This document shows, one piece after another, positions 14,267 through 38,186 of a stretch of 64,000 nucleotides of DNA. How positions within the stretch are numbered: position 1 is the stretch's first letter; the number at the start of each line of letters is the position of its first letter. Origin of the DNA: Thraustochytrium aureum (Eukaryota). The notes beneath the pieces were generated by a model. The model saw only the letters and a program-made list of their open reading frames with translations. It was not told where the DNA came from and did no database searches. The DNA is taken from contig BLSG01000402.1 of the NCBI GenBank assembly GCA_012862495.1, forward strand, positions 50,146 through 114,145, in the 5' to 3' direction. Made by a program: the position numbers and the translations under genes.

Positions 14267-14440
14267 CTTGCTAGCGCGCCTCCCTGACTCTGATCGTAAA
14301 CTCCAAATATTTGATTCCTGAAACCCGCCTCCGAGTCCATGCCGCGTAAGTACTCGAGAGAGTCCTGCTTGCTTGCTTGCTTAGCGGGCCTCCCCGGCTC
14401 TGACCGTAAACTCCAAAGCAGTTGATCCCTGAATAACCCG
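14267..14440. repeat. Degenerate ~110-bp-period direct repeat (two copies of a ~60-bp core)
   Basis: CTTGCTAGCGCGCCTCCCTGACTCTGATCGTAAACTCCAAATATTTGATTCCTGAA versus CTTGCTTAGCGGGCCTCCCCGGCTCTGACCGTAAACTCCAAAGCAGTTGATCCCTGAA. Confidence 0.75.
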
Positions 14441-15494
14441 CGCGCAAGTGTTGACGAAGTATGTCGCTCAGGATAGCAAGACAAAGCTGTCCGGGCCCTC
14501 TTCGGAAATCGTTGGTGCTCCGCGCCCCCCCCCGTGCGGGCTCTGGCGCAATCTGCCCCACCCGGGCGGACCCGCGACTCTGCAGGTCGCGACTTGATTT
14601 TTGCGACGAGACGTCCACACCAATGCGGTGAAATACCGTGCTGACGCCCAGGGAAGCCGAATCTGCCTTGACCTTCCCAGACGGGGGCGGCACTTGCTTG
14701 CTGTTGACCGCCCCCTTGGATCGCAGGAACGTCGGTGGTCCCTTGGAGAGCTTGTCTGCGACTCCGAAGAAGAAGTTTTGCACTGTAGACCGGGGCGTTA
14801 TGCTCGTCAGACCCAAAGCCAGCGTCACCATATATGGAGCCGACGAGGCCGCTTCCCACGGCAGGGCGCTCAACCCATCCAAGTACTTGACGATCAGCGA
14901 AGCCACCAACGCGGACGAGAACCAAAACTTGGGCCACAAGTACCGGCGCAGCCTGTCAACATCTGTGCCGAGCGACTCAAACAAGTACAAGCAGGTCGCC
15001 AGCACGAGGATCTCGCTGCCAAGGGCCAGCAGCAGCATCAAGCGCCATGCCCAGAGGGTCGTGTCAGCGCTCGTCACTCCGGCCAGGACCAAGACGATGC
15101 ACATGGCCAGCGGCACGCCCACAAACGCCGCCAAAACCACAGCGCGGTCGTGGTTCGAACTCTCCTTGCGCTTCCTGGCAGCTCCGCCGCCCTTGACAAT
15201 CACCTTGAGCAACCCAGTTGGCGTTACCATGGACAGCACGGTCACGTAGATTGCACCTCCACAGAACAAGGTCATTGCCACCTGATTCGGTATGACGCCT
15301 GCCCACGCGAGGGGCATTGCCACGAGCACAACGATGCCAAACATCTGGATCGACTTTGCAAACCAGAACGTCAACAGCTTGCGACCCTCCGAAAACTTGA
15401 TGTTGGGCACGGTTGCGTCCGCATATCGCTTCGCCAGCACGAGCATGATCGCTGAAAACGCCGCCTCCAGCAGGACAGTGCCGAGTGCCGCCAT
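14271..15494 (-). CDS. Hypothetical ~7-TM membrane protein with hydrophilic C-tail
   Basis: From MAALGTVLL (ATG 15494), about seven hydrophobic segments, with a basic loop (KGGGAARKRK) after TM3. The true C-terminus is uncertain. Confidence 0.6.
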   Translation of the reverse strand: MAALGTVLLEAAFSAIMLVLAKRYADATVPNIKFSEGRKLLTFWFAKSIQMFGIVVLVAMPLAWAGVIPNQVAMTLFCGGAIYVTVLSMVTPTGLLKVIVKGGGAARKRKESSNHDRAVVLAAFVGVPLAMCIVLVLAGVTSADTTLWAWRLMLLLALGSEILVLATCLYLFESLGTDVDRLRRYLWPKFWFSSALVASLIVKYLDGLSALPWEAASSAPYMVTLALGLTSITPRSTVQNFFFGVADKLSKGPPTFLRSKGAVNSKQVPPPSGKVKADSASLGVSTVFHRIGVDVSSQKSSRDLQSRGSARVGQIAPEPARGGARSTNDFRRGPGQLCLAILSDILRQHLRAGYSGINCFGVYGQSRGGPLSKQASRTLSSTYAAWTRRRVSGIKYLEFTIRVREAR

Positions 15495-16331
15495 AGCGAC
15501 TGGTGCGCGCGCATGCGTTGCTTGCAGCCGTGGCCTGGCTTCCGCCGCCACCTCGCTGTGCACGTTCCTCGCCACGGAGCGCCCCTCTACAGACCGATCG
15601 ATCGAGTGGCGATTTCGGCCGCTCGCTACCGGGTCTGGCCTGGCCTGTCCAGCACGCGTCGCGGCCAAGTACGCCGGCGAGGTGAGGCAACCACGTATGG
15701 CGGCCACGTTTGGCGGCACCGTTGCGCCGGCTGAGCCTGCTTAGCGAAGGCCAGTGACGAGAGAGAAAGGGGCTCTGCCTCCATGTCTGTGCTTGGGCAG
15801 CAGCTCAGTGGAGCGAGCGCTGCGAGTCTCTCTGGAGTGTCTGTCTTCTGAGCTGATGCAATGCGATCGATGTGGTCGTCGCCAGCCAACGGACTTTTCA
15901 CGGCTCCGTCCGTGCGTCCAACAAAAGAAGCGCTGCAAGCAAGCCGCCCGTGAGGCGCCAGCGACCAGCCCCCCCCCCAAGGGATGGGGCATGGCTGGTA
16001 ACGGGCGGCCTTGGAGAAGAAGAAAAAAACACCACAGTGCGTGCGCGCTTGTCTCAGGTGGCCACGAATGTGCGTTGGAAGCAATGAAGCTCGCACCCAC
16101 CGTCTAAGGCCCAGGAGCCGTTTGTCGATCGTTGCAAGGCGGGCTTGAAGCCCATTAAAACATGCGGGTCGCTCTGGCGGCGGCGCTGCTCCAGAGCTAG
16201 GTTTCGATCGAGGTCTATGAAGGGGGATGCCCAACACGCACATCAACGGACACTGTTCTGTTTCCAAATCTGAGCGCTGCCGATGCACTCTGCAGTTGCC
16301 GATTGGCGGTGCCAGCGGGCAGCGAGCGACG

Positions 16332-19300
16332 ATGCCTGCCGCCGCCGCAGCCGCCGCCGCACTTCGGACCGCTCTTGCTGCGGCAGTCGCGGCTGCAGCA
16401 GGGCTCGGCGCCGCGCAAGGAGCTGAGACGCAGAGCTTTGACGGATCCGGGAACAATGTCGGACACGACTCGTGGGGCGCAGCGGGTGGCACGCTAGCGT
16501 TTGCGTTCACGGCGGCAAACTTTTCGGATGGATTCGGCGAGCCAGCGGGCGCCGGCCTGGCTTCGGCAAGGGAAATCTCCAACGTCGTGTTCTCTTCTCC
16601 TTTCAAATATGCTCGCAACGGAGCAAGCGACCTCTTGCCCTACTTTGGCCAATTTCTCACGCATGAGCTAACCTCGTCGGTGTATGATTCGAACTCTGCG
16701 TTTCCGATACCTGTCCCGCGGTGCGATCCAGAATATGACAAGCAGTGCGCCGGGAACGTGTCGCTCCCCTTTTTCCGAAGCACGAGCAAGCAAGACCGGG
16801 ATGGCGTCCGGGTGCCTGTGAACAAAGCTACCGCCTGGATCGACGGCTCTGTGATCTACGGGCCCTCAAAGGAGGTATGCGACAAGCTGCGGACTTTCAA
16901 AGGCGGGCGCTTGCGCGTCTCAAAGGGCCCTCACGGAGACCTCCTGCCGCGCAACGCAGACGTCGGCCTGGATATGGTGGCAAACGAGACGGCCACTTTC
17001 GCCGCTGGCGACTACCGCGCAAATGTTGCTCCTCAGCTGCTCTTGCTCCACACGCTGTTTCACCTCGAACACAATCGACGCGCCAGAGCGCTAGAGGCTG
17101 CCAACCCGGCCTGGACGGACGACCAGATTTTTCATGCCGCGCGTCGCTTCGTGGTCGCGCTGCTGCAAAAGGAGACCTACTACCACTATGTTCCCTCGAT
17201 CATTGGGAAAAGGCTTTCAGAGTACCAGGGGTACGACCCGGGCCTGCGCCCCGACCTCGACGTCACATTTGTTACCGCTGCGTTTCGCTACGGACACAGC
17301 GCAACGTCCCCGCTTGTGTTCCGCTTGGACGAGTCTCGACAGCCAGTTGCCGGGGGGCACCTACCTCTAGAGCAAACCATGTTCACCGGCGAGCTCATCG
17401 CGCTGCACGGCATCGACGATGTCCTTCGAGGCGCAGTTGCGCAGGGCGAATCGGATGCCGATCTGAGCATGCCCGCCGCGCTTCGATTCAACAAGGTAGT
17501 CGTGGACCTCGCCGCCTTTGATGTGCAGCGCGGGCGGGAGCGCGGATTGCCGACTTTCAACGGACTCCGCCGCCAACTTGGCCTTGCTCCCGCCCAGAAC
17601 TTCACGCAACTCACCAACGATATTGAGGCGCAGGCATTGCTCGAGCGAGTGTACGCAAGCGTCGACGACGTTGAAGCGCTCGTGGGTGGGCTCGCAGAGC
17701 GACCAATGGGTCCCGGAAAGGTCCCACCAACTCTGGCACGACTCTTTCAGCTCCAGTTCCAGCGCCTGCGCGGCTCTGACCGGTTCCACTTTGAAAACCC
17801 CACAACGCTCACTGACGAAGAGCGCCAAGCCTTGGAAAACCGGACGCTGGCACAGATGGCTTTGGACTTTACCGAAATCAAGTGGCTCCCTGAAGACCTT
17901 TTCGAGCAGTCCGCAGCGGCTTCTCCTATCGCCTGCGCTGTCGCAGACGAAAATGGTGTCATCCCCACCAGCGCCTTCAACTACAAAGTCGAAGTTTTGC
18001 CGGGGTTTACCTTCAGCTGGAATATGGACCTCGACGCTGGACTGATTAACGTCCTCGTGAGTGCCACGGCGCCAGAAACGGGCTGGGTCGCCATCGGCGT
18101 CGGATCAACTGGCATGGCCGATGCTGACGTCGCCTTGGGCCGACTCGAGAGCTCTGGGGATCAACGCGTCGCAGTTGTTCTCGACATGTATATTCCGGCA
18201 ACGACTGGATCCCTGGAGCCGGTGTTGGACACGGAATTGAGCTCGCCCTGCACTTCCAGCATAGACCAAAGCGCCGTGACTGGCGGCTTCGAAGCCGGTC
18301 GCCTTTGGTTCAACTTTTCGCGCCCGCTCAGCCCCGGCTCGTGCGGAGACCACCCAATAAACGTCTTGGCCGACTCATCAGGGGCTGGTGCAACCGCACC
18401 CGTCGACATGATTTTCGCGTATGGAGACCGGTTTGGCTCCTACCACGGCCGTGCCCGTCGCGTTGGAGTCGGCGGCATCGACCTGCTCTCTCCTCTGTAT
18501 CTTCGTACCGATGGCAGCGTTGCGCCAGCCCCGGCACAAGAGCGCGAGGCAGTGATATTCTCGGTCCACGGCGTGGTGATGGCTTTTATGTGGCTTTTCG
18601 CTGTCCCGATGAGCATCGTCGTGCTCCAATGGAAGCGCGCCAAACGATTCGCCGTGCAAGTCCACCAGTCGCTTGCGCAACTTGGCTCGCTTGCAGTGAT
18701 TTCGTTTGCCGCAACAGCCTTCGTGTCCAACGACCACATCCACTGGAATCTGCACCTCGTCCTCGCGTGCGTGGTCGTCCTCTGGATGCTTGTCCAGATC
18801 GCGCTAGGTTGGCTTTTGCAGCTCGGCCTAGGCTCCGCGTCGAGCCCCTACGTTGTGCACCTCATTCGCAAGCAGCACCGGCGTAGCGGTCGCTTGCTCA
18901 TGGTGCTAGCCATCGTCAATTGCTACGTTGGCGTGGACGAGCTGTTCGAGGCCGACAACTTGGCTCCGCGCGTCGTTTTCGCCGTTTACGTCGTGTTGCT
19001 CGTAGCCCTCCTTGGCATGGGCAAGTTTAAGCAAATACTAGCCGGCGGTGCACAAGAGGCCCAGCTCGGCAAGCTCCAAGAAAAAGCCCGGCTAGCGTCT
19101 TCAATCACCATGTCGAGCGAGACGCGAGAAGGAGCACGCATCTTCGAGGGAAACATAACGGTGGACTCTACCCTTCCAGAGTGGACTCTTCAGGACTTTA
19201 CCAAGGAAGTACTGGCGGGCTCGTCCTTGGTTGTTATTGCTGGTCTCGCGTTCGACATCGGTTCGTACGCCGACATCCATCCCGGCGGGTGCAACCTACT

Positions 19301-20276
19301 GCGCTCGCACATTGGCCTAGACGTCACCCCGTTCTTCTTTGGCCGCCGCGGCATCGCCGGGACGTCCTACAAGCACACCCACACTGTGAGAGCCCTCGCT
19401 GAACTGAACGGGTTCCTGCGCGCGCGAGTCAAGCACGGCCAGCTCGAAAGTTCGCAAACGCCGACAGAGGCGCGCACGCTTTGCGCCAAGGCTGCGCTGC
19501 GCTTTGAGTCTTTCGAGGTCAAGGAGAAGAGGGCGCTGTGCGAGGGCAAGCCCACAACCTACTTGTTCCGCTTGGGGGCTCCCGAAAAGAGCGGCTCGAA
19601 GAGAAGCAGCGGCATGTTTCGCATGTTGCCTGGTCAGCACATTGTCATCATGGCGGAAATCGGGGGGCGCAGCGTCATGCGCAAGTTTACTCCTGTCGAG
19701 GTCGTCGCGGGGGACGGCACGATCTCCGTCGCTATCAAGCTGTACAGCAGCGGAATTATGTCACAGTTCCTCGCCAAGACGCAGACGGGCAGCTTGCTTC
19801 GCGTCCACGGCCCGGTTGGCGAGCCGCTGTTGAACAGGGACCCTGTGACGCGGCTTGCTGCTGGGTGCTGGCCAAAGGTAATCTTTATTGTTGGCGGCAC
19901 GGGGTTGAGCCCGGCTCTTGCGTTTATCAAGTACCAGCTTCGTTACGCGGCCAGCTCCCAGCTTTTCTTGATGGTTTGCAACCACCACCCAAGGGACGCC
20001 TACTATATTCGGCACTTGCGCGGCATCTGCGACCAGCACAGCGACCAGCTCAAGGTCACGCTCCACTTCACCAGCAAGAAGCGCACGCGGCCCCTTGCCG
20101 GATTTCCGGTCACGAGCGGCGACATAAACAGCGAGTTGCTGGTGCAACAAGAATGGCCTCGTCAGAAAGCCTTTGCGGACCTGTTGTGCGTGGTCTGCGG
20201 CCCGCTCGGCTTTTGCACAGCAATCTCCAAGTCGATGCAAAGGCTCGGCTTTACCAACATCAAGTCTCTCCATTGA
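16332..20276 (+). CDS. Heme peroxidase (peroxidase-cyclooxygenase superfamily)-DOMON-cytochrome b561-cytochrome b5-FAD/NAD reductase fusion protein
   Basis: Ala-rich signal peptide. Peroxidase: SFDGSGNN, FGQFLTHE, TAWIDGSVIYG, AGDYRAN, AAFRYGHS, QRGRERGLP. DOMON: GWVAIG..GMADAD...FSRPL...IFAYG...YHG. b561: four His in TM helices. b5: IHPGG...HT. Reductase: PGQHI, RKFTP, GIMSQFL, GGTGLSP, CGP. One uninterrupted ORF. Confidence 0.92.
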   Translation: MPAAAAAAAALRTALAAAVAAAAGLGAAQGAETQSFDGSGNNVGHDSWGAAGGTLAFAFTAANFSDGFGEPAGAGLASAREISNVVFSSPFKYARNGASDLLPYFGQFLTHELTSSVYDSNSAFPIPVPRCDPEYDKQCAGNVSLPFFRSTSKQDRDGVRVPVNKATAWIDGSVIYGPSKEVCDKLRTFKGGRLRVSKGPHGDLLPRNADVGLDMVANETATFAAGDYRANVAPQLLLLHTLFHLEHNRRARALEAANPAWTDDQIFHAARRFVVALLQKETYYHYVPSIIGKRLSEYQGYDPGLRPDLDVTFVTAAFRYGHSATSPLVFRLDESRQPVAGGHLPLEQTMFTGELIALHGIDDVLRGAVAQGESDADLSMPAALRFNKVVVDLAAFDVQRGRERGLPTFNGLRRQLGLAPAQNFTQLTNDIEAQALLERVYASVDDVEALVGGLAERPMGPGKVPPTLARLFQLQFQRLRGSDRFHFENPTTLTDEERQALENRTLAQMALDFTEIKWLPEDLFEQSAAASPIACAVADENGVIPTSAFNYKVEVLPGFTFSWNMDLDAGLINVLVSATAPETGWVAIGVGSTGMADADVALGRLESSGDQRVAVVLDMYIPATTGSLEPVLDTELSSPCTSSIDQSAVTGGFEAGRLWFNFSRPLSPGSCGDHPINVLADSSGAGATAPVDMIFAYGDRFGSYHGRARRVGVGGIDLLSPLYLRTDGSVAPAPAQEREAVIFSVHGVVMAFMWLFAVPMSIVVLQWKRAKRFAVQVHQSLAQLGSLAVISFAATAFVSNDHIHWNLHLVLACVVVLWMLVQIALGWLLQLGLGSASSPYVVHLIRKQHRRSGRLLMVLAIVNCYVGVDELFEADNLAPRVVFAVYVVLLVALLGMGKFKQILAGGAQEAQLGKLQEKARLASSITMSSETREGARIFEGNITVDSTLPEWTLQDFTKEVLAGSSLVVIAGLAFDIGSYADIHPGGCNLLRSHIGLDVTPFFFGRRGIAGTSYKHTHTVRALAELNGFLRARVKHGQLESSQTPTEARTLCAKAALRFESFEVKEKRALCEGKPTTYLFRLGAPEKSGSKRSSGMFRMLPGQHIVIMAEIGGRSVMRKFTPVEVVAGDGTISVAIKLYSSGIMSQFLAKTQTGSLLRVHGPVGEPLLNRDPVTRLAAGCWPKVIFIVGGTGLSPALAFIKYQLRYAASSQLFLMVCNHHPRDAYYIRHLRGICDQHSDQLKVTLHFTSKKRTRPLAGFPVTSGDINSELLVQQEWPRQKAFADLLCVVCGPLGFCTAISKSMQRLGFTNIKSLH

Positions 20277-20865: not shown

Positions 20866-21852
20866 ATGTCGGTCGCTGAGGCTCTCCAGCGCGTGAGCGG
20901 CAGCATCCAGGTGCTGTCGCAGCAGCTTGGACGCAAGTCGCCGCGACTGGTCGCCGTGAGCAAGACCAAGCCGGTTGAGGCGCTCATGGAGGCGTACGAG
21001 GCTGGGCAGAGGCACTTTGGCGAGAATTATGTAAGTCTATCGTCGCTCGCGTGTCGGTGCTCGTTGAGCGCGGCTGACCCTGGAGCCGCGCAGGTCCAAG
21101 AGCTCGTCGACAAGGCGCCAAGCATGCCAGCAGATACTCGCTGGCACTTTATCGGACACCTGCAGTCGAACAAGGCCAAGGTGATCGCTCGCATCCCCAA
21201 CCTGTACCTCGTCGAGAGCGTCGACAGTGCCAAGCTCGCGACGCTGCTCGACAAGAACCTGCCCGAGACCCGAGAAGAGAAACTCAAGGTAATGGTGCAG
21301 GTCAACACGTCAGGCGAGGAGTCGAAGAGCGGCGTGGAGCCGTCCAACTGCGTCGAGCTCGTCAAGCACGTCGTGTCGAACTGCGCGCGCCTCGAGTTTA
21401 TCGGCCTGATGACAATCGGCCGGCTTGGAGACGTCTCTCCAGAGTGCTTTGCACTGCTCTGCAAGTGCAGGGACGACGTCCTGGGTAGCGGTATCGACAG
21501 CATTCCCAGTGTAGACGAATTTGAGCTCAGCATGGGTATGTCGGGCGACTACGAGCTCGCCATACAGCATGGCTCGACCAACGTTCGAATTGGGTCGACC
21601 ATCTTCGGGACGCGAGACTACTCTGCAAGCAAGCCCGCCGAGAGCGCCGCGAGCACGCCAGCAGAAGGTGCTGCGGTTTGCGCAAGCACTTCGTCCCCAG
21701 AGTCGACGATTCAGGAGGAGCAAGGTCAAGGAGAATCTGCCCTGCCAGCGAGCCCTGCAGCAGACACTAGCGGAACGAATACGACTCTACCTACTAGTGC
21801 TGGCGTAGAGGGCGTGGGTGAGAGTGGGGCCCCAGCTGGACAGCAGCTCTAG
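20866..21852 (+). CDS. PLPBP: Pyridoxal phosphate homeostasis protein (YggS/PROSC); intron 21031-21093
   Basis: LVAVSKTKP, FGENY|VQEL, WHFIGHLQSNK, QVNTSGEESKSG, GLMTIG, LSMGMSGD and VRIGSTIFG; low-complexity C-tail. Confidence 0.96.
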   Translation: MSVAEALQRVSGSIQVLSQQLGRKSPRLVAVSKTKPVEALMEAYEAGQRHFGENYVSLSSLACRCSLSAADPGAAQVQELVDKAPSMPADTRWHFIGHLQSNKAKVIARIPNLYLVESVDSAKLATLLDKNLPETREEKLKVMVQVNTSGEESKSGVEPSNCVELVKHVVSNCARLEFIGLMTIGRLGDVSPECFALLCKCRDDVLGSGIDSIPSVDEFELSMGMSGDYELAIQHGSTNVRIGSTIFGTRDYSASKPAESAASTPAEGAAVCASTSSPESTIQEEQGQGESALPASPAADTSGTNTTLPTSAGVEGVGESGAPAGQQL

Positions 21853-21976: not shown

Positions 21977-24009
21977 TCAGATGTCGAGGTCTTCCCAGTT
22001 GACGGCCGACAGCTTGGAGCTGCTCTTCTTGGCCGTAGCGCGTTTTCCGGCTGTAGAGGCGCGTGTTGTTCTTGTCGCGGGCTCCTTGCCTTCCTTTGCG
22101 AGCTTGCCTCCCGCTTGCGCAGCCACGGGGGCCGCGGGAGCCTCCGGCTTGGGTAGCTCGGCCTTCTTGCCCTTTTTTGCCGACTTGGCAGGTGCGTCGA
22201 CCTTTGGTGCAGGTTTTGCAGCAGCGGGCGACACAGCGAGAGCTGCCTTTTTCACGACCTTTGAAGGAGCCTTTTCGCTCTCCCCAGCAGGAGCGCCCCC
22301 AGCGGGAGCGCCCCCAGCGGGAGCGTCTGCGGCTTCCGCCTTCTCAGCAGTGAACTGGGCTTTTCGCGCTTCCCACGCGGCCTTCTTGGCCATTTTCTTG
22401 GCAGCCTTTTTGCTCGGCCTCTGGGCCGCGGCACTCGACTCGTCGCGCTCGCGCTTCTTCCCACGACGGCGACCGCGCCGCTTCGAGTTTGGGTTGGCCT
22501 CCTGGTTGGCCACCTTGGCGCGGGCACTGTTGCCGGCAGCAAGACGCGATTTGTTGGATTTGGCATGATCGGAATCTTCAACGTCGCCGTCGCTTTCGCT
22601 CTCAGCCTCCTCGTCAATCTGATCGTCTTCCATGCTGTCCTCCTCGTCGTCCTGGTCGTTGCTCTGACCATCCTCCTTCTCTTCTTCGTCCTCGTCGTCG
22701 TCGTCCTCCTCCTCCTCCTCCTCGACGTCGCTGGCACCACCGCCGGAGCGGAAAAAGTCCTTTTGCGGCAACTTGGAAAAGTCTTGTTTGGGGATCTCGC
22801 CCAGCTCGCTGGCGTGCTTTTGGGCCTCCTCTGCAGCTTCTTTGTCTTCCGCCGAGCCAGCCGGGTCGGCGACGCTCGCGTCGGTCTGGGAGCCATCTGC
22901 AGGAGGCGGAATAAAGTACGGGATTCGACCGCGCTGAAGATCGTAGATGAGCCGCTGGGAGACGCTTCGAAAGTCGGGCTCGCCCCCGCGGAGCAGGCGG
23001 CCGCGCTTGGTGGCCAGTTTCGTGAGGAAGTCCTCTGGCGAGTCCCACTCGTCGATGCCGTAGAGACGCACGATGTACTCGCGCTGCACACGTTCCAAGA
23101 ACGAGCCGATGTAGTCCTCTGGCGAGTCGAGGCGCTCTGCGCGGACGACGCCCTTCATGACGATGTCCGCTTCAGAGTCGTTGTTGGGGTAGACGACACC
23201 AGGGCAATCGATCAGGAAGACGCGCTTGAAGAGGGTCACGTACTGCCAGATCTTGGTCTCGCCGGGGATTGGGGCCACCTTGCAGACCTTCTTCGAGCGC
23301 AGCGAGTTGATGATCGAGCTCTTGCCCGCGTTCGGGTAGCCGATGAGGCCCACACTGATCTGCTTCTTCTCCGGGTGGAGCAGCGCGAACTGGCGCAGGA
23401 GCTGAATCAAAGCGCCCTTGCCGAACGGCTTGGTGAGGTGCGCGTGGAAGGCCAGGGTCGGGTACTCTTCGGAGAGAATGCGCACCCAGCGACGGGTCAC
23501 CCACGTGGGCACAAGGTCGCACTTGTTGAGGACAAAGATCAGGTGCTTGTGCCTGGCGTTCTTCTTGAGGTGGTCCTCGACGCGCTTGGAGCGCGTGCCA
23601 AGCGGGTCGCGCGCGTCCAAGACCTGCAGGACGACGTCGCTGCAGTCGAGTACCTTGTAGAGCTCCTGCCAGATGCGGGCGCTCTGCCCCTTCTTGAACA
23701 CTTCCTCCCGCATCTCCGCCGACACGGTGGGGTCGCCGAGCGGGGTGCTCTCCACCTTTTCGTCAAAGGTCTGCGCCTTCTTGCTCGCGCTTTCCACGAG
23801 GCCGTTCAGCGAGGAGCTCGCCAGTTTGGCGCGCTTGCGCTGCTTCTTCGGCCCGAACACGTTCTCAAAGCTCTCTGCGCTCAGCAAGTTCATCTTGGCC
23901 GTCTTGATTGGGTCGCTCAGCAGTCCCATGGGCAGTTTGCGTTGGTTGATCACCACCGAGTAGGGGTCGTTCACCTTCTCGGACATTTGCTCCCTGAAGC
24001 GCTCGAGCT
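21977..24009 (-). CDS. NOG2: Nucleolar GTPase NOG2/GNL2 (5' part in gap)
   Basis: [59 protein letters not shown] and LIDCPG; acidic and Lys-rich tail. Confidence 0.96.
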
Positions 24010-32622: not shown

Positions 32623-35600
32623 TCAGATCCGCGCCAGCATGGGAAAGTCCGCAACTGAGGCCGACACGCCCGACCGCGGCCGGGACAATATCGGACCACG
32701 CAGAAAGCCGATGCGATCTATCAGCGCCTGCAGGTTCGCTCGCTCAGAGTACGGGTGCTTGACCGCAACGACCGTCTCGCTCTCCTTTGGCTTTCCAATA
32801 ACCTTGGGCAACGCGCGGGTTGTTATCGAGACGACGCCCCAGTCCGCAAATGTCGCGAGGGCGTTTTGCAGCGTACCTGCAGAGCAGCTCTCGTAGTGAA
32901 CGATAATGCGGTCGTGGTATAGGTTCTCTGCAAGCAACGACATGCGCTGGACGAGCGTGTCCTGCTTGACGCACGCATCCGGAAGCAGCGCAATCAGGGC
33001 AGAGGCTGCAATAAAATAGCTGTCCACAAAAGGCCAGGCCATCGAGCACAGGAGGCCGAATACGCGCTCCGCCTCGATGGAGGGGTGTACACGGAGAAAC
33101 GTCGACTCCGGGTCTGGGCCACGAGCCCCAACGGACCGCCCGCGCTGCATCACCCCGCGACCAACAAGGCCGTCCAGCGCGCGGCGCAGGGCAGCTTCCG
33201 GCGCGAGCAAGCGCTCTCCAGACACGAACTCGCGACCAAGCATCGTGTCGAGGAACACCGCGTCGTGCTCCACCCCGCCCAGCGAGCCAAACGCGGCAGA
33301 AACGTCTCCCGCTGGCGAGCCAGAGTGCTGCTCTGTGCCGTCCCAGGCCGGCAAGCTGGCAGCTGCAGCCGAGGCGGCAGCAGTTGCGGCTGCGGCTGCG
33401 GTGTCGTTTCCGGCCTCTTGCGCTGCCTTTTGCGCCGCAGCGTCTCGCTTCACTTGCGCGGACTGGAGCATAGCGAGGAGCCCTGGGTTTTGGAACGTGC
33501 GAGCGTTGCGCACAGCAGAGATGTCAATGCTTGAGCCGACGCCAGAGGCTGGGTTTGCCTCTGACGAGGTCGACCGTGGTCCCAGGCCAGCGACAGTACT
33601 GCTTGCTGACGAGACGGCTGCTTGGAACGCCGCTTCAGCGAAGCGCGCGTCCGTTTGCGACTTGAGGGAGAGCGACTCTTCTCGCGCAAGTGGCTCGGCC
33701 GGCCTGGCGTGAGCCCAGTGCGCGTACAGAGCGCACGCCCAAAAGGCCTCCCTCGCAAACAGGTGGACTATCTTGTTACGGTAGTAGCCGAGAATGACCA
33801 TGTTCAGGTAGTCCTTGGGCGAGCTGTTGACCGCGACCTCGATCACGCGCGGGGAACGGCGTTCCTGGACCACAGGCCCCAAGAGGCGCAACGCCCGGCG
33901 CACAAGCTCCACCCGGTGCTCGCCCTCGCTGCAGGCAACGTGTCCCCCGCGGAGCTGCACCTCTTGGCGAAGCCAGTCCACGCTCGGCGCAAGCTGGTCG
34001 ATCGTGATCCCGTGGCGGTACATGAGGAGCAGCGTGGCGACCAAATGGATGGGCATGCAGACCGCCGCCGCCTGCATCTCGTCCATTATGCGGTACCCGA
34101 GCGGAGCGGCCAGCAAGGCCGGGTGCGCTGCGGCCACCGCCAGGCCCCGCGCAGCCGCGATGCTCTGTAGCGCCTCCTTGGCCGAGATGTGCCGGCCGAA
34201 CTGAACAGAGACATGGCCGAACGTGCTCTTCAGCACCATAGCCGAGCGCAAGAGGTTTCGCGTCGTTTCTGGCACCTTGCTTGTGCCCAGCATCTCTTGC
34301 GAGTACACTGATGCCTCCAGCGGCTTTTCGTAGTCGATGGAAATCGGCACAAAGATGACGTCCTCGACACGGCCGTCCATGACGGGCTCGATGCAGATCC
34401 TTGTGATTCCCACCTTGGGCTCGAGGCTCTTGCCGCTCCGGCTCCTCGTGCCTTCGATGTAGTACTCGACGATCTGGCGATCGACCAGGAGGCGCTGCAT
34501 GTACTGGGTGAACACGGCCGCGTAGAGCGGGTCGCTCTGGAACGCGCCTTGACGCCGCAAGAAGAACGCCCCAGAAGCGCGCAGCACCTCGGACACCCCT
34601 TTCATGCCGAGAAAGTCGGTGCTCGCAGCGATGTAGGGCACAGGCAAGTTGAGCGCGAAGAAGACAAAGCTGAGCATCAGAAAGTCGACGTAGCTCCTGT
34701 GCGTCGGCACGAGCACGATCGGGTGCTTTGCAGCAGCTGCAGCCTCTCGGAGCTGCTCTAGGCCCTCTTCGTGAATGCGAATCCCCTCGTACAGGTTGCG
34801 CCACACCTTGCGCAGCGCCCACCCAAACGCCCGGGGCGGAGCGTCCGACATGGTGCTTGCAATCTCATCCAAGAGAAGTTGCGCGCGCTCCGCCACTTGC
34901 GATCGTGGTTCTCCGTTTGCCTTGGCCTCGGCCTTGATCGCAGAGCGGACCTGCTTGGTCTTCATCACGAGCGCTTTGGCTGCCGACGCAGTGCGCTGCG
35001 TTTTGCGCGGTACGTGCTTTGCTTCGTGCGCGAGGCCCTCGCGCCAGCCCGTCAAACCCATCAAGCGGCCCAAGACGCCGGCTTTGGTGTAGCCAGGCTT
35101 GCGGCTCGACGTGTACGCCCAGGAGATGTCGGAGATAATCCCGGGGAAGCTGATGCTGTGGTGGTCCGGGTCCCAGTCGAGCAACCGACCGAGCGTGAGA
35201 CTCACGTCAGTGTGCGACACCGCGCTCTCGCTTATCGGGACGAGATCCTCCCTGAGGATAAAGCGGTTTAGGCCGTACACGTAGTTTTCAAAGTAGCGCG
35301 GCCACGCGATCTCCAGCGCGTCGACAAAGAGGCTGTTCGTCCGACCAGCCAGCTCCGTCGTTGGCAGGGGCGAGGCTGACCGCGTGGTGTCTAGGACGGC
35401 GGCGCCTGCCCACTCCTTGGCAACCGTCGTGTCAAACAGGAACTCGGTCGACGTGAAGGGCTCGAACAGGTTGACAAGGTACTCGGACCGATCCAGGAGC
35501 AGCTCGAGTTGGCCGGCCTGCCGGACGTAGCCCTTGGTGCCAACGAGGCGGGCAAATTGCGCAAAGGCATTGTGGGGAGCACGTACCTGAGCCCCCACTC

Positions 35601-36764
35601 AAAGTTGAACTGCGGTCTACTCTTCAGCATGCGAAATTTGACGGGCCCTGGAGTCAGCTTGACCGGTGGGGGCCGCTTCTTGTAGGCCCCAACCACAGAC
35701 TTGCTCACCACGCGCCAGCGGACTGGGTTGTACGTCGAGGTGCAGCTGTGGCTGATATCCAGCGCACCACGCCGCCCGAAGATGTCGGCACACGCAAGGA
35801 GTATGTGATTGACGACAAAGTCGACAGGCACGATCGCTGCAACGCCCCTCGGGTCGCCGGGGAGCATGGTGACCACTCCGAGGCAGACGCCCATGAACAC
35901 GGCGCTCGCTGCGCTCACTACGTCGACCCAGCCAGGGCAGGGTTCCCTCCAGGACGCGCCAACAATGGATGGGCGCACGATTGATAGCGGCACTTCGCCG
36001 TGCTCTCGCTCCAGCATCGCTTCCGCCATGGCCTTGGTCAAAGTGTACGTGTTGGGGAAGGCGCCCTGAATCTTCATCTGCAGTCGTTCGAACCACACCG
36101 AATCGGCGGAGCTGTGCTTGGTCCTAGCTTTGGCGATGACAGCGCCAGGGTCAAACTCCATCGGGTAGACTCGCTCGTGAATCACCTTTCCGTCTTTCCG
36201 GTTAGCATTAACGTACGCGGTGGAGACGTGGACGAGCGCGCCGACGTTGAGCGCTTTGGCGAGATCCAGAACGCGCAGCGCGCCTTCCGTGTTGAGCCGG
36301 ATCGCGTCGGCGAGCGGGTCGTCAAAGTTGACGGACGCGGCGCAGTGCAAAATAATCGCGACGCCCTCTTGCTCTAGCCGGTCTCGGTCAGCCTCCGAGA
36401 TCCCGAGCCCCGGAAGCGTTACGTCGCCACCAACGGGCACAAGTACGCGCTCGCACAGGTTTTGGAGCGATTGCGCTCCGCTCGCGCCGCCGCCCAACTG
36501 CTTTCGGAGGACGTCAAACACCTCTGACTGCACGATCTCTTTCTGCACGCGCTCCGTCGGCACGCTTCCCTTGCCGGGCCTCACGAGCAAAAAGATGCGC
36601 CTCACGCCGTTCTTGCCAGCCCTCGCGCGACGCAGAGGCCCGTGCGAGCTCCCATGACTGGAAAAGCACCTGAGCAGCTTTTCCAGCAGCACCTTGCCAA
36701 CAAACCCGGTCGCTCCCGTCACGAGCACGGCGCGATCGTCCAGCGTGTCCCACACGCGCTCCAT
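32623..36764 (-). CDS. FARAT: Bifunctional fatty acyl-CoA reductase / DHAP(G3P) acyltransferase (FARAT-type); apparent frameshift ~35572
   Basis: FAR: VTGATGFVGKVLLEK, HCAASVNFD, HVSTAYV, NTYTLTK, IVRPSIV, EPCPGW, VPVDFVVN. Acyltransferase: PTHRSYVDF, GAFFLRR, YIEGTRSRSGK, VPISIDYE. Ends in PTS1-like ARI. Confidence 0.9.
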
Positions 36765-38186
36765 CCCGCCTCGCCTTTCGCCGAGCAGCCCGACCTTCAC
36801 GGCGGCGCCGGGCGCCAAACCACGCCTCGCGCACGAGGAAGGAGTCTGCGCCCACGCGGCCCTGGACTGCAGCCGCGCACCGACCAGCACGTACCTGGGC
36901 GCTCCACGCCCCCGAGCTCTGCGCAGAGCTGCAGCGCAAGGAGGCCAGCGCAAGGCGCGTTGCGAGTCTGCCCACGTCCGCGTCCTCAAGGCGTCGCGGC
37001 GCTCGAGGTGGCACGAAGGACGACGAACGACCAGTTCATGAACGACCGGGTTGAGGTTCATCCTCGGCGTCTTCTTGCTCATGCTCACCTGCGGCCCGCG
37101 TCCTTTGAGCGAGCGAGCGAGCGAGATGGAGGCGCCGCGACCGTGGCTGGCTTCCGGTAGCCGTCCGTGCCACGCGGTGCAATTGCTCGCACTGGTTGCA
37201 TCGTCGTTGTTTTTGTTGGTCTTTTTTTGCCCAGGACGTGGGCTTGCAACGGAAGTGTCGCACCTTGCTGCAGGTCGGCGAGTCGTGGTGCGCACGGAAG
37301 CGCTGCCGCAGGCTGGTGATGTTGATTGTTTGTTTTGTTGAAGAGTCTACGAAGACGACGGGTCGCCGGCGCGTGAAAGGAGTTGCAGCACTCGAACACG
37401 GAAACAAGCAACTGTTCCACGAGATCGTATTGGAAAGCTCTAGAGCTAGATCGAAGGTGGCAACTTNNNNNNNNNNNNNNNNNNNNNNNNNNNNNNNNNN
37501 NNNNNNNNNNNNNNNNNNNNNNNNNNNNNNNNNNNNNNNNNNNNNNNNNNNNNNNNNNNNNNNNNNNNNNNNNNNNNNNNNNNNNNNNNNNNNNNNNNNN
37601 NNNNNNNNNNNNNNNNNNNNNNNNNNNNNNNNNNNNNNNNNNNNNNNNNNNNNNNNNNNNNNNNNNNNNNNNNNNNNNNNNNNNNNNNNNNNNNNNNNNN
37701 NNNNNNNNNNNNNNNNNNNNNNNNNNNNNNNNNNNNNNNNNNNNNNNNNNNNNNNNNNNNNNNNNNNNNNNNNNNNNNNNNNNNNNNNNNNNNNNNNNNN
37801 NNNNNNNNNNNNNNNNNNNNNNNNNNNNNNNNNNNNNNNNNNNNNNNNNNNNNNNNNNNNNNNNNNNNNNNNNNNNNNNNNNNNNNNNNNNNNNNNNNNN
37901 NNNNNNNNNNNNNNNNNNNNNNNNNNNNNNNNNNNNNNNNNNNNNNNNNNNNNNNNNNNNNNNNNNNNNNNNNNNNNNNNNNNNNNNNNNNNNNNNNNNN
38001 NNNNNNNNNNNNNNNNNNNNNNNNNNNNNNNNNNNNNNNNNNNNNNNNNNNNNNNNNNNNNNNNNNNNNNNNNNNNNNNNNNNNNNNNNNNNNNNNNNNN
38101 NNNNNNNNNNNNNNNNNNNNNNNNNNNNNNNNNNNNNNNNNNNNNNNNNNNNNNNNNNNNNNNNNNNNNNNNNNNNNNNNNNNNNN

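Follow-up and report, generated by a model that had tools for sequence, protein, structure and literature searches.

Here we describe a gene within a window of 64,000 nucleotides of Thraustochytrium aureum DNA (contig BLSG01000402.1; all positions refer to this whole stretch), whose single open reading frame (ORF; 16332..20276, plus strand) is predicted to encode a five-helix membrane protein that combines a peroxidase with a flavin reductase and four heme sites for electron transfer. The architecture is real and widespread, is built from known parts and has apparently not been studied before. The ligands of its electron-carrying portion—a DOMON-b561-b5-reductase ‘wire’—are nearly invariant in its relatives, while their peroxidase site is mostly incomplete; the T. 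aureum copy keeps that site. Our favoured reading, to which we would give somewhat less than an even chance, is that the protein acts as an NAD(P)H-fed surface peroxide reductase, consuming H2O2 rather than making it.

One intron-free ORF with six domains

The ORF is free of stops and Ns and specifies 1314 amino acids (aa) plus the stop codon. Its ATG at 16332 precedes an Ala-rich stretch predicted from hydropathy to be a signal peptide (residues 1–30; 16332..16421, plus strand), and an in-frame ATG at 16227 provides an alternative start that would add 35 aa. A hydrophobic N-terminal stretch is present in 26 of the 33 homologues with an intact N-terminus. A scan for donor, branch and acceptor sites picked an in-frame intron candidate in a neighbouring gene but none within the ORF, and insertions specific to this protein (the query) relative to its family are at most 9 aa long, bearing out the preliminary description of one intron-free ORF. 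Three short contigs from a sequencing run (share 0.07; its status as RNA is a guess) fall inside the ORF at a depth of at most 4 and differ from it at four positions, all synonymous, which is too thin to speak for expression or for a single transcript.

Pfam recovered six domains, five above the curated cut-off and one just under it: An_peroxidase (residues 34–516; 407 bits), DOMON (559–670; 36.4 against a cut-off of 32.7), Cytochrom_B561 (746–869; 19.3, below the cut-off of 23), Cyt-b5 (953–1002; 24.4 against 23.7), FAD_binding_6 (1094–1164; 52.5) and NAD_binding_1 (1185–1299; 23.8 against 22). This is the order previously proposed, and the sub-cut-off b561 call is backed by a structure match. 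An NCBIfam scan of the protein gave reductase matches only, all sub-threshold. The heme ligands named beforehand for all domains proved correct, with 12 of 12 positions in frame and encoding the stated residues (H111, R229, H322, M595, H705, H746, H778, H808, H849, H983 and H1015/H1017). For structural comparison we used two AlphaFold2 models, one of residues 31–1040 (predicted local distance difference test, pLDDT, 83.7; predicted template modelling score, pTM, 0.56) and one of residues 545–1314 (pLDDT 82.3; pTM 0.66), which we matched against 48,161 PDB representatives.

The N-terminal heme peroxidase (16431..17879, plus strand; Pfam, alignment to 8S6C and 6ERC, structure) belongs to the peroxidase-cyclooxygenase superfamily. 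Its nearest solved relatives are CyanoPOX (8S6C; Z 50.2) and DdPoxA (6ERC; Z 49.2), each matching at ~250 bits in sequence, ahead of DUOX1 (Z 42.3; 158 bits). DdPoxA uses a distal Gln/His/Arg and a proximal His/Arg set and has a heme potential of -0.276 V (PMC5787809; here and throughout, statements on papers cited by PMC number concern the accessible parts of their text). All of these residues are present in the query (Q107, H111 at 16662, R229 at 17016, H322 at 17295 and R400), as they are in CyanoPOX; apart from the proximal Asn, this is the set expected of a catalytically competent member of the superfamily. The query pair Cys131–Cys139 also aligns with a cysteine pair of DdPoxA. Differences lie in the proximal Asn of DdPoxA, replaced by Asp397 (17520), and in the heme ester bonds: DdPoxA has one Glu (PMC5787809) and CyanoPOX both acidic residues (PMC11776367), whereas the query has neither the Asp nor the Glu, carrying T110 and V232 instead. 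Halide oxidation, one of the activities suggested for the protein at the outset, is therefore less likely. The residue before the RYGH motif is Phe318, not Tyr. Both solved relatives are free enzymes, whereas the query peroxidase is fused as a ‘tip’ to the wire.

A linker of ~39 aa (17880..17996, plus strand), likely flexible and partly of low confidence in the model (pLDDT <50 at residues 529–547), leads into the wire; the median peroxidase–DOMON gap in 63 family members is 39 aa. The DOMON cytochrome-type domain (17997..18470, plus strand; Pfam, fold), with ligands M595 (18114) and H705 (18444), matches the DBH DOMON and the CDH/PDH cytochrome domains (Z 14.3–12.6). It is followed by a five-helix cytochrome b561 domain (18534..19046, plus strand; model, fold, His conservation), in which H746/H808 (18567, 18753) are predicted to bind an outer and H778/H849 (18663, 18876) an inner heme, the pairing being by analogy with HYP1 (PMC10784544). 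Sequence searches of this part against the PDB gave no match. Its best fold matches are cytochrome b561 4O6Y (Z 14.5, 162 residues aligned, 3.2 Å) and Dcytb 5ZLG (Z 14.3, 166 aligned, 2.9 Å), as compared to Z 10.7 for the NOX5 membrane domain. A Z of ~14 is moderate for a helical bundle, but each of four successive helices carries one of the four His, and their spacing is CYBDOM-like.

The cytochrome b5 domain (19176..19430, plus strand; Pfam, alignments, Z 10.6 to b5) has its first ligand, H983 (19278), in an HPGG motif. For its second, two candidates had been put forward, at 19374 and 19380; H1017 (19380) is invariant in 40/40 and 42/42 aligned rows and is most likely the ligand, while H1015 (19374) is not invariant. 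Then come an FAD-binding domain of b5-reductase type (19482..19829, plus strand; Pfam, fold), with RKFTP for the RxYTP motif (Phe for Tyr), and an NAD(P)H-binding domain (19863..20273, plus strand; Pfam, fold) with GGTG and CGP motifs. In fold, the reductase part matches b5 reductases (Z 22.8–22.5) above the NOX5 dehydrogenase (Z 17.0). T1247 (20070) aligns with the Asp that selects NADH in b5 reductases, and the family column at this position holds Ser in 33, Thr in 16 and Lys in 13 of 96 rows. Given the replacement of this Asp by Thr1247, the electron donor is probably NADPH rather than NADH.

Five membrane helices appear in the AlphaFold2 models. An odd number would place the peroxidase and DOMON on the side opposite to b5 and the reductase, as the preliminary description had supposed, and two further features support this topology: inner loops are basic and outer loops neutral or acidic, and six of seven N-glycosylation sequons fall within residues 1–700, before the membrane part. 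Hydropathy and the structure model are the basis for both the signal peptide and the topology. We thus predict that the peroxidase and DOMON face outside, meaning the cell surface or an organelle lumen, and the b5 and reductase inside.

The architecture is widespread among eukaryotes

Searching residues 545–1314 against 1.84 billion representatives yielded 1447 matches at E ≤0.001; all homologue counts, alignments and trees reported here derive from the best 150 of these. Domains in the homologues were called with profiles built from those matches, and Pfam agreed on the peroxidase in 30 of 30 cases checked. All six domains occur in the same order in 58 homologues. Peroxidase plus DOMON-b561-b5-FAD is found in 62, and another 45 have the same wire without An_peroxidase; these 107 wire-bearing homologues have identities of ~20–33%. 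In addition, an ESM Atlas cluster (score 0.99, 179 members) carries An_peroxidase in 100%, Cyt-b5 in 97% and DOMON in 88% of its members. Word-indexed searches returned only six matches, all stand-alone peroxidases, and none at all with residues 545–1314, the family surfacing only in the unindexed search and the ESM Atlas.

An organism name was attached to 20 of 29 homologues looked up: Gigaspora, Dentiscutata, eleven other fungal genera, the brown alga Discosporangium, the diatom Corethron and the CRuMs member Rigifila. Sorochytrium belongs to the Blastocladiomycota, and the further fungal genera we take to be chytrids. Several copies of the family occur in mycorrhizal and chytrid fungi and in algae and other protists. 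The Rigifila ramosa homologue is an ORF from a transcript assembly and bears all six Pfam domains. Database entries name the homologues ‘heme peroxidase’ or ‘hypothetical protein’. We found no description of the six-domain architecture in the full-text literature, subscription papers and supplements being outside that scope; nor is it described in the accessible parts of PMC13425148, PMC4824067, PMC5787809, PMC4855317, PMC3591440, PMC10784544, PMC9524095, PMC11776367, PMC7794343, PMC10784552, PMC8956913 or PMC6123691. The earlier statement that no protein of this kind is characterised thus holds insofar as we found no characterisation, but a lineage-specific one-off is ruled out by the full architecture in 58 of the best 150 homologues across fungi, algae and protists, alongside the 179-member Atlas cluster.

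Wire ligands are nearly invariant, peroxidase sites mostly incomplete

Among the 107 wire-bearing homologues, the DOMON Met and His are each present in 104 (the remainder being gaps), the b561 ligands H746, H778, H808 and H849 in 105, 99, 107 and 107, respectively, and the b5 His-Pro in all 107. Basic residues near the inner heme, which bear on ascorbate as a donor, are conserved in part: position 766 is Arg in 97/107 homologues and Gln in the query, and position 846 is Arg/Lys. In seven of the 45 peroxidase-less homologues (P0038, P0045, P0061, P0063, P0100, P0123 and P0151), Lys replaces the inner b561 ligand H778, implying altered ligation or heme loss.

Peroxidase residues were counted in the 46 homologues covering all three sites of the triad formed by distal His, distal Arg and proximal His (16 of the 62 were dropped for gaps). 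The full triad is present in 15 and the proximal His alone in 17; since two of the 46 (P0046 and P0068) look N-terminally truncated, 15 is a floor. The intactness of the peroxidase ligands claimed in the preliminary description therefore applies to this copy and not to the family, in about two-thirds of which the distal site is incomplete. Counted separately, the proximal His is kept in 51/59 covered rows. Asp takes the place of the proximal Asn in 40/62 homologues, Tyr immediately precedes the RYGH motif in 9/62, and of the ester-bond residues Asp occurs in 0/46 and Glu in 8/62.

Trees of the peroxidase and wire parts of 53 proteins have 20 of 27 strong splits in common, with two conflicting pairs, suggesting that peroxidase and wire have for the most part been passed on as a unit. 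With only six outgroups, the fused peroxidases form a group at 0.84, making one ancient peroxidase–wire fusion plausible. We also built a quick IQ-TREE phylogeny, unrooted and long-branched, of 64 rows (47 with all peroxidase sites covered and 17 peroxidase-less ones with a signal-like stretch; 44 of 108 omitted). Fourteen of the 17 peroxidase-less rows fall inside a clade with a support of 99, in which none of the 11 peroxidase-bearing members has the full triad. The branches starred in this tree force at least four changes for the peroxidase-less and at least seven for the degenerate state. Decay of the peroxidase followed by its loss would be the simplest reading.

The tip is replaced or absent in some relatives

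Pfam was run on each of the 45 wire homologues that lack An_peroxidase, their gene models taken as deposited. Two of them, P0106 and P0067, carry a PF00141 peroxidase of unrelated fold between the signal-like stretch and the DOMON. The P0106 tip has cytochrome c and ascorbate peroxidases as its best PDB matches and keeps the distal and proximal motifs; it shows no detectable similarity to the P0067 tip, and the two proteins sit in different parts of the tree. The 2338-aa protein P0148 consists of a DOMON-b561 unit, then a long multicopper oxidase and then DOMON-b561-b5-reductase, resembling a reductase and a ferroxidase in one chain. P0033 and P0010 have in common a His..Cys..His..Met segment (blastp E 3e-8) that looks blue-copper-like, a call we treat as a lead only. 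PF00141 peroxidases, multicopper oxidases and blue-copper domains are one-electron acceptors, so their appearance in this position makes the tip look like a swappable electron acceptor. Taken together, we consider it possible, with rather more doubt than confidence, that the wire constitutes an old and widespread eukaryotic class with a swappable tip—two kinds of peroxidase, a multicopper oxidase, blue copper, extra DOMONs or none—and that its peroxidase-tipped form is a single-chain ‘anti-NOX’, which would spend NADPH on extracellular H2O2 and reproduce the DUOX layout from non-homologous membrane parts.

Other variants were seen in the same set. An SH3 match lies within the reductase region of 19 of the 45 homologues lacking An_peroxidase (P0097, P0126 and P0100 among them), where it may serve regulation in the chytrid clade. 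Of P0104 and P0048, one has 12 DOMON domains and EGF repeats before a b561 and the other 11 tandem cytochrome b5 domains. A second ESM Atlas cluster (54 members, mostly ciliates; score 0.78, a lead only) lists b5, DOMON and FAD_binding_6; the peroxidase is not listed.

The wire resembles CYBDOM proteins and b5 reductases, not NOX enzymes

FRRS1/SDR2 are animal CYBDOM proteins. Like the CYBDOM proteins Arabidopsis HYP1 and CRR, the query has a Met/His DOMON outside a five-helix b561 with two His pairs, spaced 32/30/41 residues apart as compared to 34/33/36 in HYP1 (PMC10784544). In HYP1, electrons from ascorbate cross three hemes on their way out to external acceptors (PMC10784544). Ferric and cupric ions are reduced by characterised CYBDOMs (PMC10784544, PMC10784552), an activity also proposed for Chlamydomonas homologues (PMC4855317). 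CYBDOMs are ascorbate-fed and consist of DOMON(s) and b561 only, whereas the query adds a b5, a two-domain b5 reductase and an N-terminal peroxidase; the fused reductase suggests a donor other than ascorbate.

With DUOX1/2 the query shares the plan of a peroxidase-superfamily ectodomain, a two-heme membrane domain and a C-terminal FNR-type flavin domain in one chain. It differs in having a b561 in place of the ferric-reductase domain, and additional DOMON and b5 hemes. Moreover, human DUOX1 lacks the peroxidase heme ligands (PMC7794343) that the query keeps. PF01794, the ferric-reductase domain, is absent from the query at E ≤0.1 and not listed in the 85 of 150 homologues scanned. Instead of the His pairs on helices 3 and 5 expected of a DUOX, the query His lie on four different helices, 32/30/41 residues apart. 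Pfam scans of the query and the scanned homologues returned no EF-hand family; in DUOX, cytosolic EF-hands separate the peroxidase from the membrane domain, a position occupied here by the DOMON. The flavin part is FAD_binding_6 and NAD_binding_1 rather than the NOX-type FAD_binding_8/NAD_binding_6, although weak NAD_binding_6 matches occur in some homologues. NOX and DUOX enzymes have an Arg/His oxygen site beside the outer heme (PMC7794343, PMC8956913); no non-ligand His or Arg near that heme is conserved at ≥70% in the 107 homologues, and the His residues adjoining the outer-heme ligand H808 in the query (H802 and H804) are not conserved. The b561-like membrane part (Z 14.5 versus 10.7), the b5-reductase-like flavin part and the lack of EF-hands rule out an ordinary DUOX, in agreement with the preliminary assignment of the membrane and reductase parts.

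The C-terminal part is matched best, in both sequence and structure, by the b5 plus b5-reductase modules of nitrate reductase, NCB5OR/CYB5R4 and Cbr1 (Z 22.8–22.5), but in the query this module sits below a b561 in the same chain, and its electrons are predicted to cross the membrane. In cellobiose dehydrogenase, a Met/His cytochrome domain of DOMON fold (Z 12.6) passes its electrons on to a partner enzyme, and cytochrome c re-reduces cytochrome c peroxidase; the P0106 tip is of cytochrome c or ascorbate peroxidase type. Unlike the query, both systems are soluble, do not cross a membrane and do not draw on cytosolic NAD(P)H. The eFRE clade of ferric reductases from Naegleria and oomycetes likewise combines an outside DOMON with an NADPH-fed membrane wire, but through a NOX-type ferric reductase domain, with no b561, b5 or peroxidase described in the accessible parts of the report (PMC3591440).

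A peroxide reductase as the favoured function

Electrons would run from NAD(P)H, probably NADPH, over FAD, b5, the inner and the outer b561 heme to the DOMON heme, which is the path given in the preliminary description and the natural reading of the domain order. In its least certain step, the DOMON heme would re-reduce Compounds I and II of the peroxidase, as cytochrome c does with cytochrome c peroxidase, and the peroxidase would use the delivered electrons to turn H2O2 into water at the cell surface. Ferric and cupric chelates would be a likely second outlet, and the main one in relatives without a working tip. If HYP1 (PMC10784544) is a guide, the role of ascorbate may fall here to the fused b5 and reductase.

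For such a peroxide reductase speak the near-invariant wire ligands in the 107 homologues together with the intact distal and proximal residues of this copy, the nature of the alternative tips as electron acceptors, one of them of cytochrome c peroxidase type, the outward conduction of CYBDOMs to external acceptors with no NOX-like oxygen site conserved, and the mostly joint inheritance of the two halves. The hemes of b561 and of Met/His DOMONs have positive potentials, which would make them poorly suited to forming superoxide or to reducing a ferric peroxidase heme efficiently, and well suited to reducing Compounds I and II; the accessible parts of PMC8956913 and PMC6123691 gave no b561 or DOMON heme potentials.

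Several observations weigh against this reading. With the full triad in only 15 of 46 homologues, and with P0067 carrying a class I peroxidase that lacks its distal His, peroxide reduction is not the function of the whole family. A signal-like stretch lies directly before the DOMON in 17 of the 45 tip-less homologues, where the wire is thus retained without any tip; incomplete sites and tip-less members alike imply another outlet, probably metal chelates. Swapped tips are few (5/45) and come from deposited gene models, and the blue-copper lead has Copper-bind on 17–40% of Atlas cluster members. The query itself departs from conserved family sites (Q766 for Arg, F1119 for Tyr and A774 for Trp). 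Finally, AIR12, which has a DOMON only, was linked to superoxide production (PMC10784552).

This last point leads to the reading favoured in the preliminary description, a DUOX-like maker and user of reactive oxygen species (ROS), in which electrons escape from the wire to O2, either at the outer heme or at that of the DOMON, and the peroxidase uses the resulting H2O2 to oxidise wall, matrix or aromatic substrates. The layout is that of DUOX, with a peroxidase-like domain outside and a flavin inside (PMC7794343), distal His and Arg are intact here, and H2O2 made nearby would serve a tethered peroxidase, whichever of the two superfamilies it came from. The recurrent degeneration of the site also has a parallel in the heme-less DUOX1 domain (PMC7794343). 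However, the membrane part is b561-like, with four His on four helices, a NOX-type O2 site is not conserved, CYBDOMs reduce metals, and tips of the multicopper-oxidase or blue-copper kind are more readily understood as electron acceptors than as users of H2O2. A reduced heme beside the peroxidase would also tend to short-circuit its oxidised states, and the missing ester-bond residues speak against halide oxidation. ROS generation is thus not the best-supported function, and we regard it as unlikely, if a serious contender.

Also unlikely, in our estimate, though far from negligible, is a self-sufficient ferric/cupric reductase for ascorbate-poor organisms or conditions, with the DOMON reducing chelates and the peroxidase serving as an accessory (protection from Fenton chemistry, heme binding or a structural role). 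Reductase plus multicopper oxidase is the pairing of reductive iron uptake, and P0148 couples the wire to just such an oxidase. Tip-less versions persist (17/45), 14 of the 17 nested in the clade of triad-lacking peroxidases, and metal reduction is what characterised CYBDOMs do (PMC10784544, PMC10784552) and what was proposed for the Chlamydomonas homologues (PMC4855317). Yet by itself this explains neither the peroxidase tip in 62 of the 107 wire-bearing homologues nor its replacement by a second peroxidase type; the proximal His is kept in 51 of 59 covered rows, and no iron transporter or other iron gene is present among the 19 neighbouring ORFs examined.

Much less probable is a P450-like surface oxygenase or oxidase, in which the wire would reduce the peroxidase heme so that it activates O2 without H2O2. 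It would account for the retention of the proximal His and heme-side arginines next to variable distal His and Arg; Asp for the proximal Asn (40/62) could strengthen an electron push, and Tyr before the RYGH motif (9/62) might mark a cyclooxygenase-type radical site, if we equate the positions correctly. But the query has Phe318 there, and reducing a ferric heme near -0.28 V, the value for DdPoxA (PMC5787809), from a DOMON taken to be of high potential would be uphill. That separate genes were joined by assembly error or read-through is very hard to credit: no transcript spanning the ORF was seen, but the ORF has no run of Ns, and we reject such an artefact on the 58 distant homologues among the best 150 that match it in all six domains and in their order, the transcript-derived Rigifila ramosa ORF included.

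Eukaryotic electron export across membranes is usually assigned either to NADPH-fed NOX/FRE enzymes or to ascorbate-fed b561/CYBDOM proteins. The DOMON-b561-b5-reductase family would be a third route, in which a b561 is coupled to an NAD(P)H reductase. Should its electrons end at the peroxidase, the protein would be a dedicated surface sink for H2O2, relevant to oxidative bursts of hosts or algae; if ROS are made instead, it would be a convergent DUOX. What the swappable tip points to is a specific function, the reverse of that of NOX enzymes, for which this copy, intron-free and with its peroxidase site intact, is a good test case.

Neighbouring genes

Upstream and divergent from the wire gene lies a 407-aa ORF of multi-membrane-like appearance (14271–15494, minus strand), without a Pfam match at E ≤0.1. 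Downstream, an ORF at 20866–21852 (plus strand) has no listed Pfam family but, by its motif, is presumably a pyridoxal phosphate homeostasis (YggS/PROSC) protein; it contains the 63-nt in-frame GTAAGT..CAG intron candidate (21031–21093), with a branch motif. The ORF at 21977–24007 (minus strand) encodes nucleolar GTP-binding protein 2 (NOG2), its best named match being from the thraustochytrid Hondaea fermentalgiana (74% identity), which puts the host with thraustochytrid-like stramenopiles. Farther along, at 32623–37082 (minus strand), a fatty acyl-CoA reductase ORF (NAD_binding_4) is directly followed by an acyltransferase/GPAT ORF. The 330 bases between them look coding, so that the two may form a single fused reductase-acyltransferase gene interrupted by an intron or frameshift.

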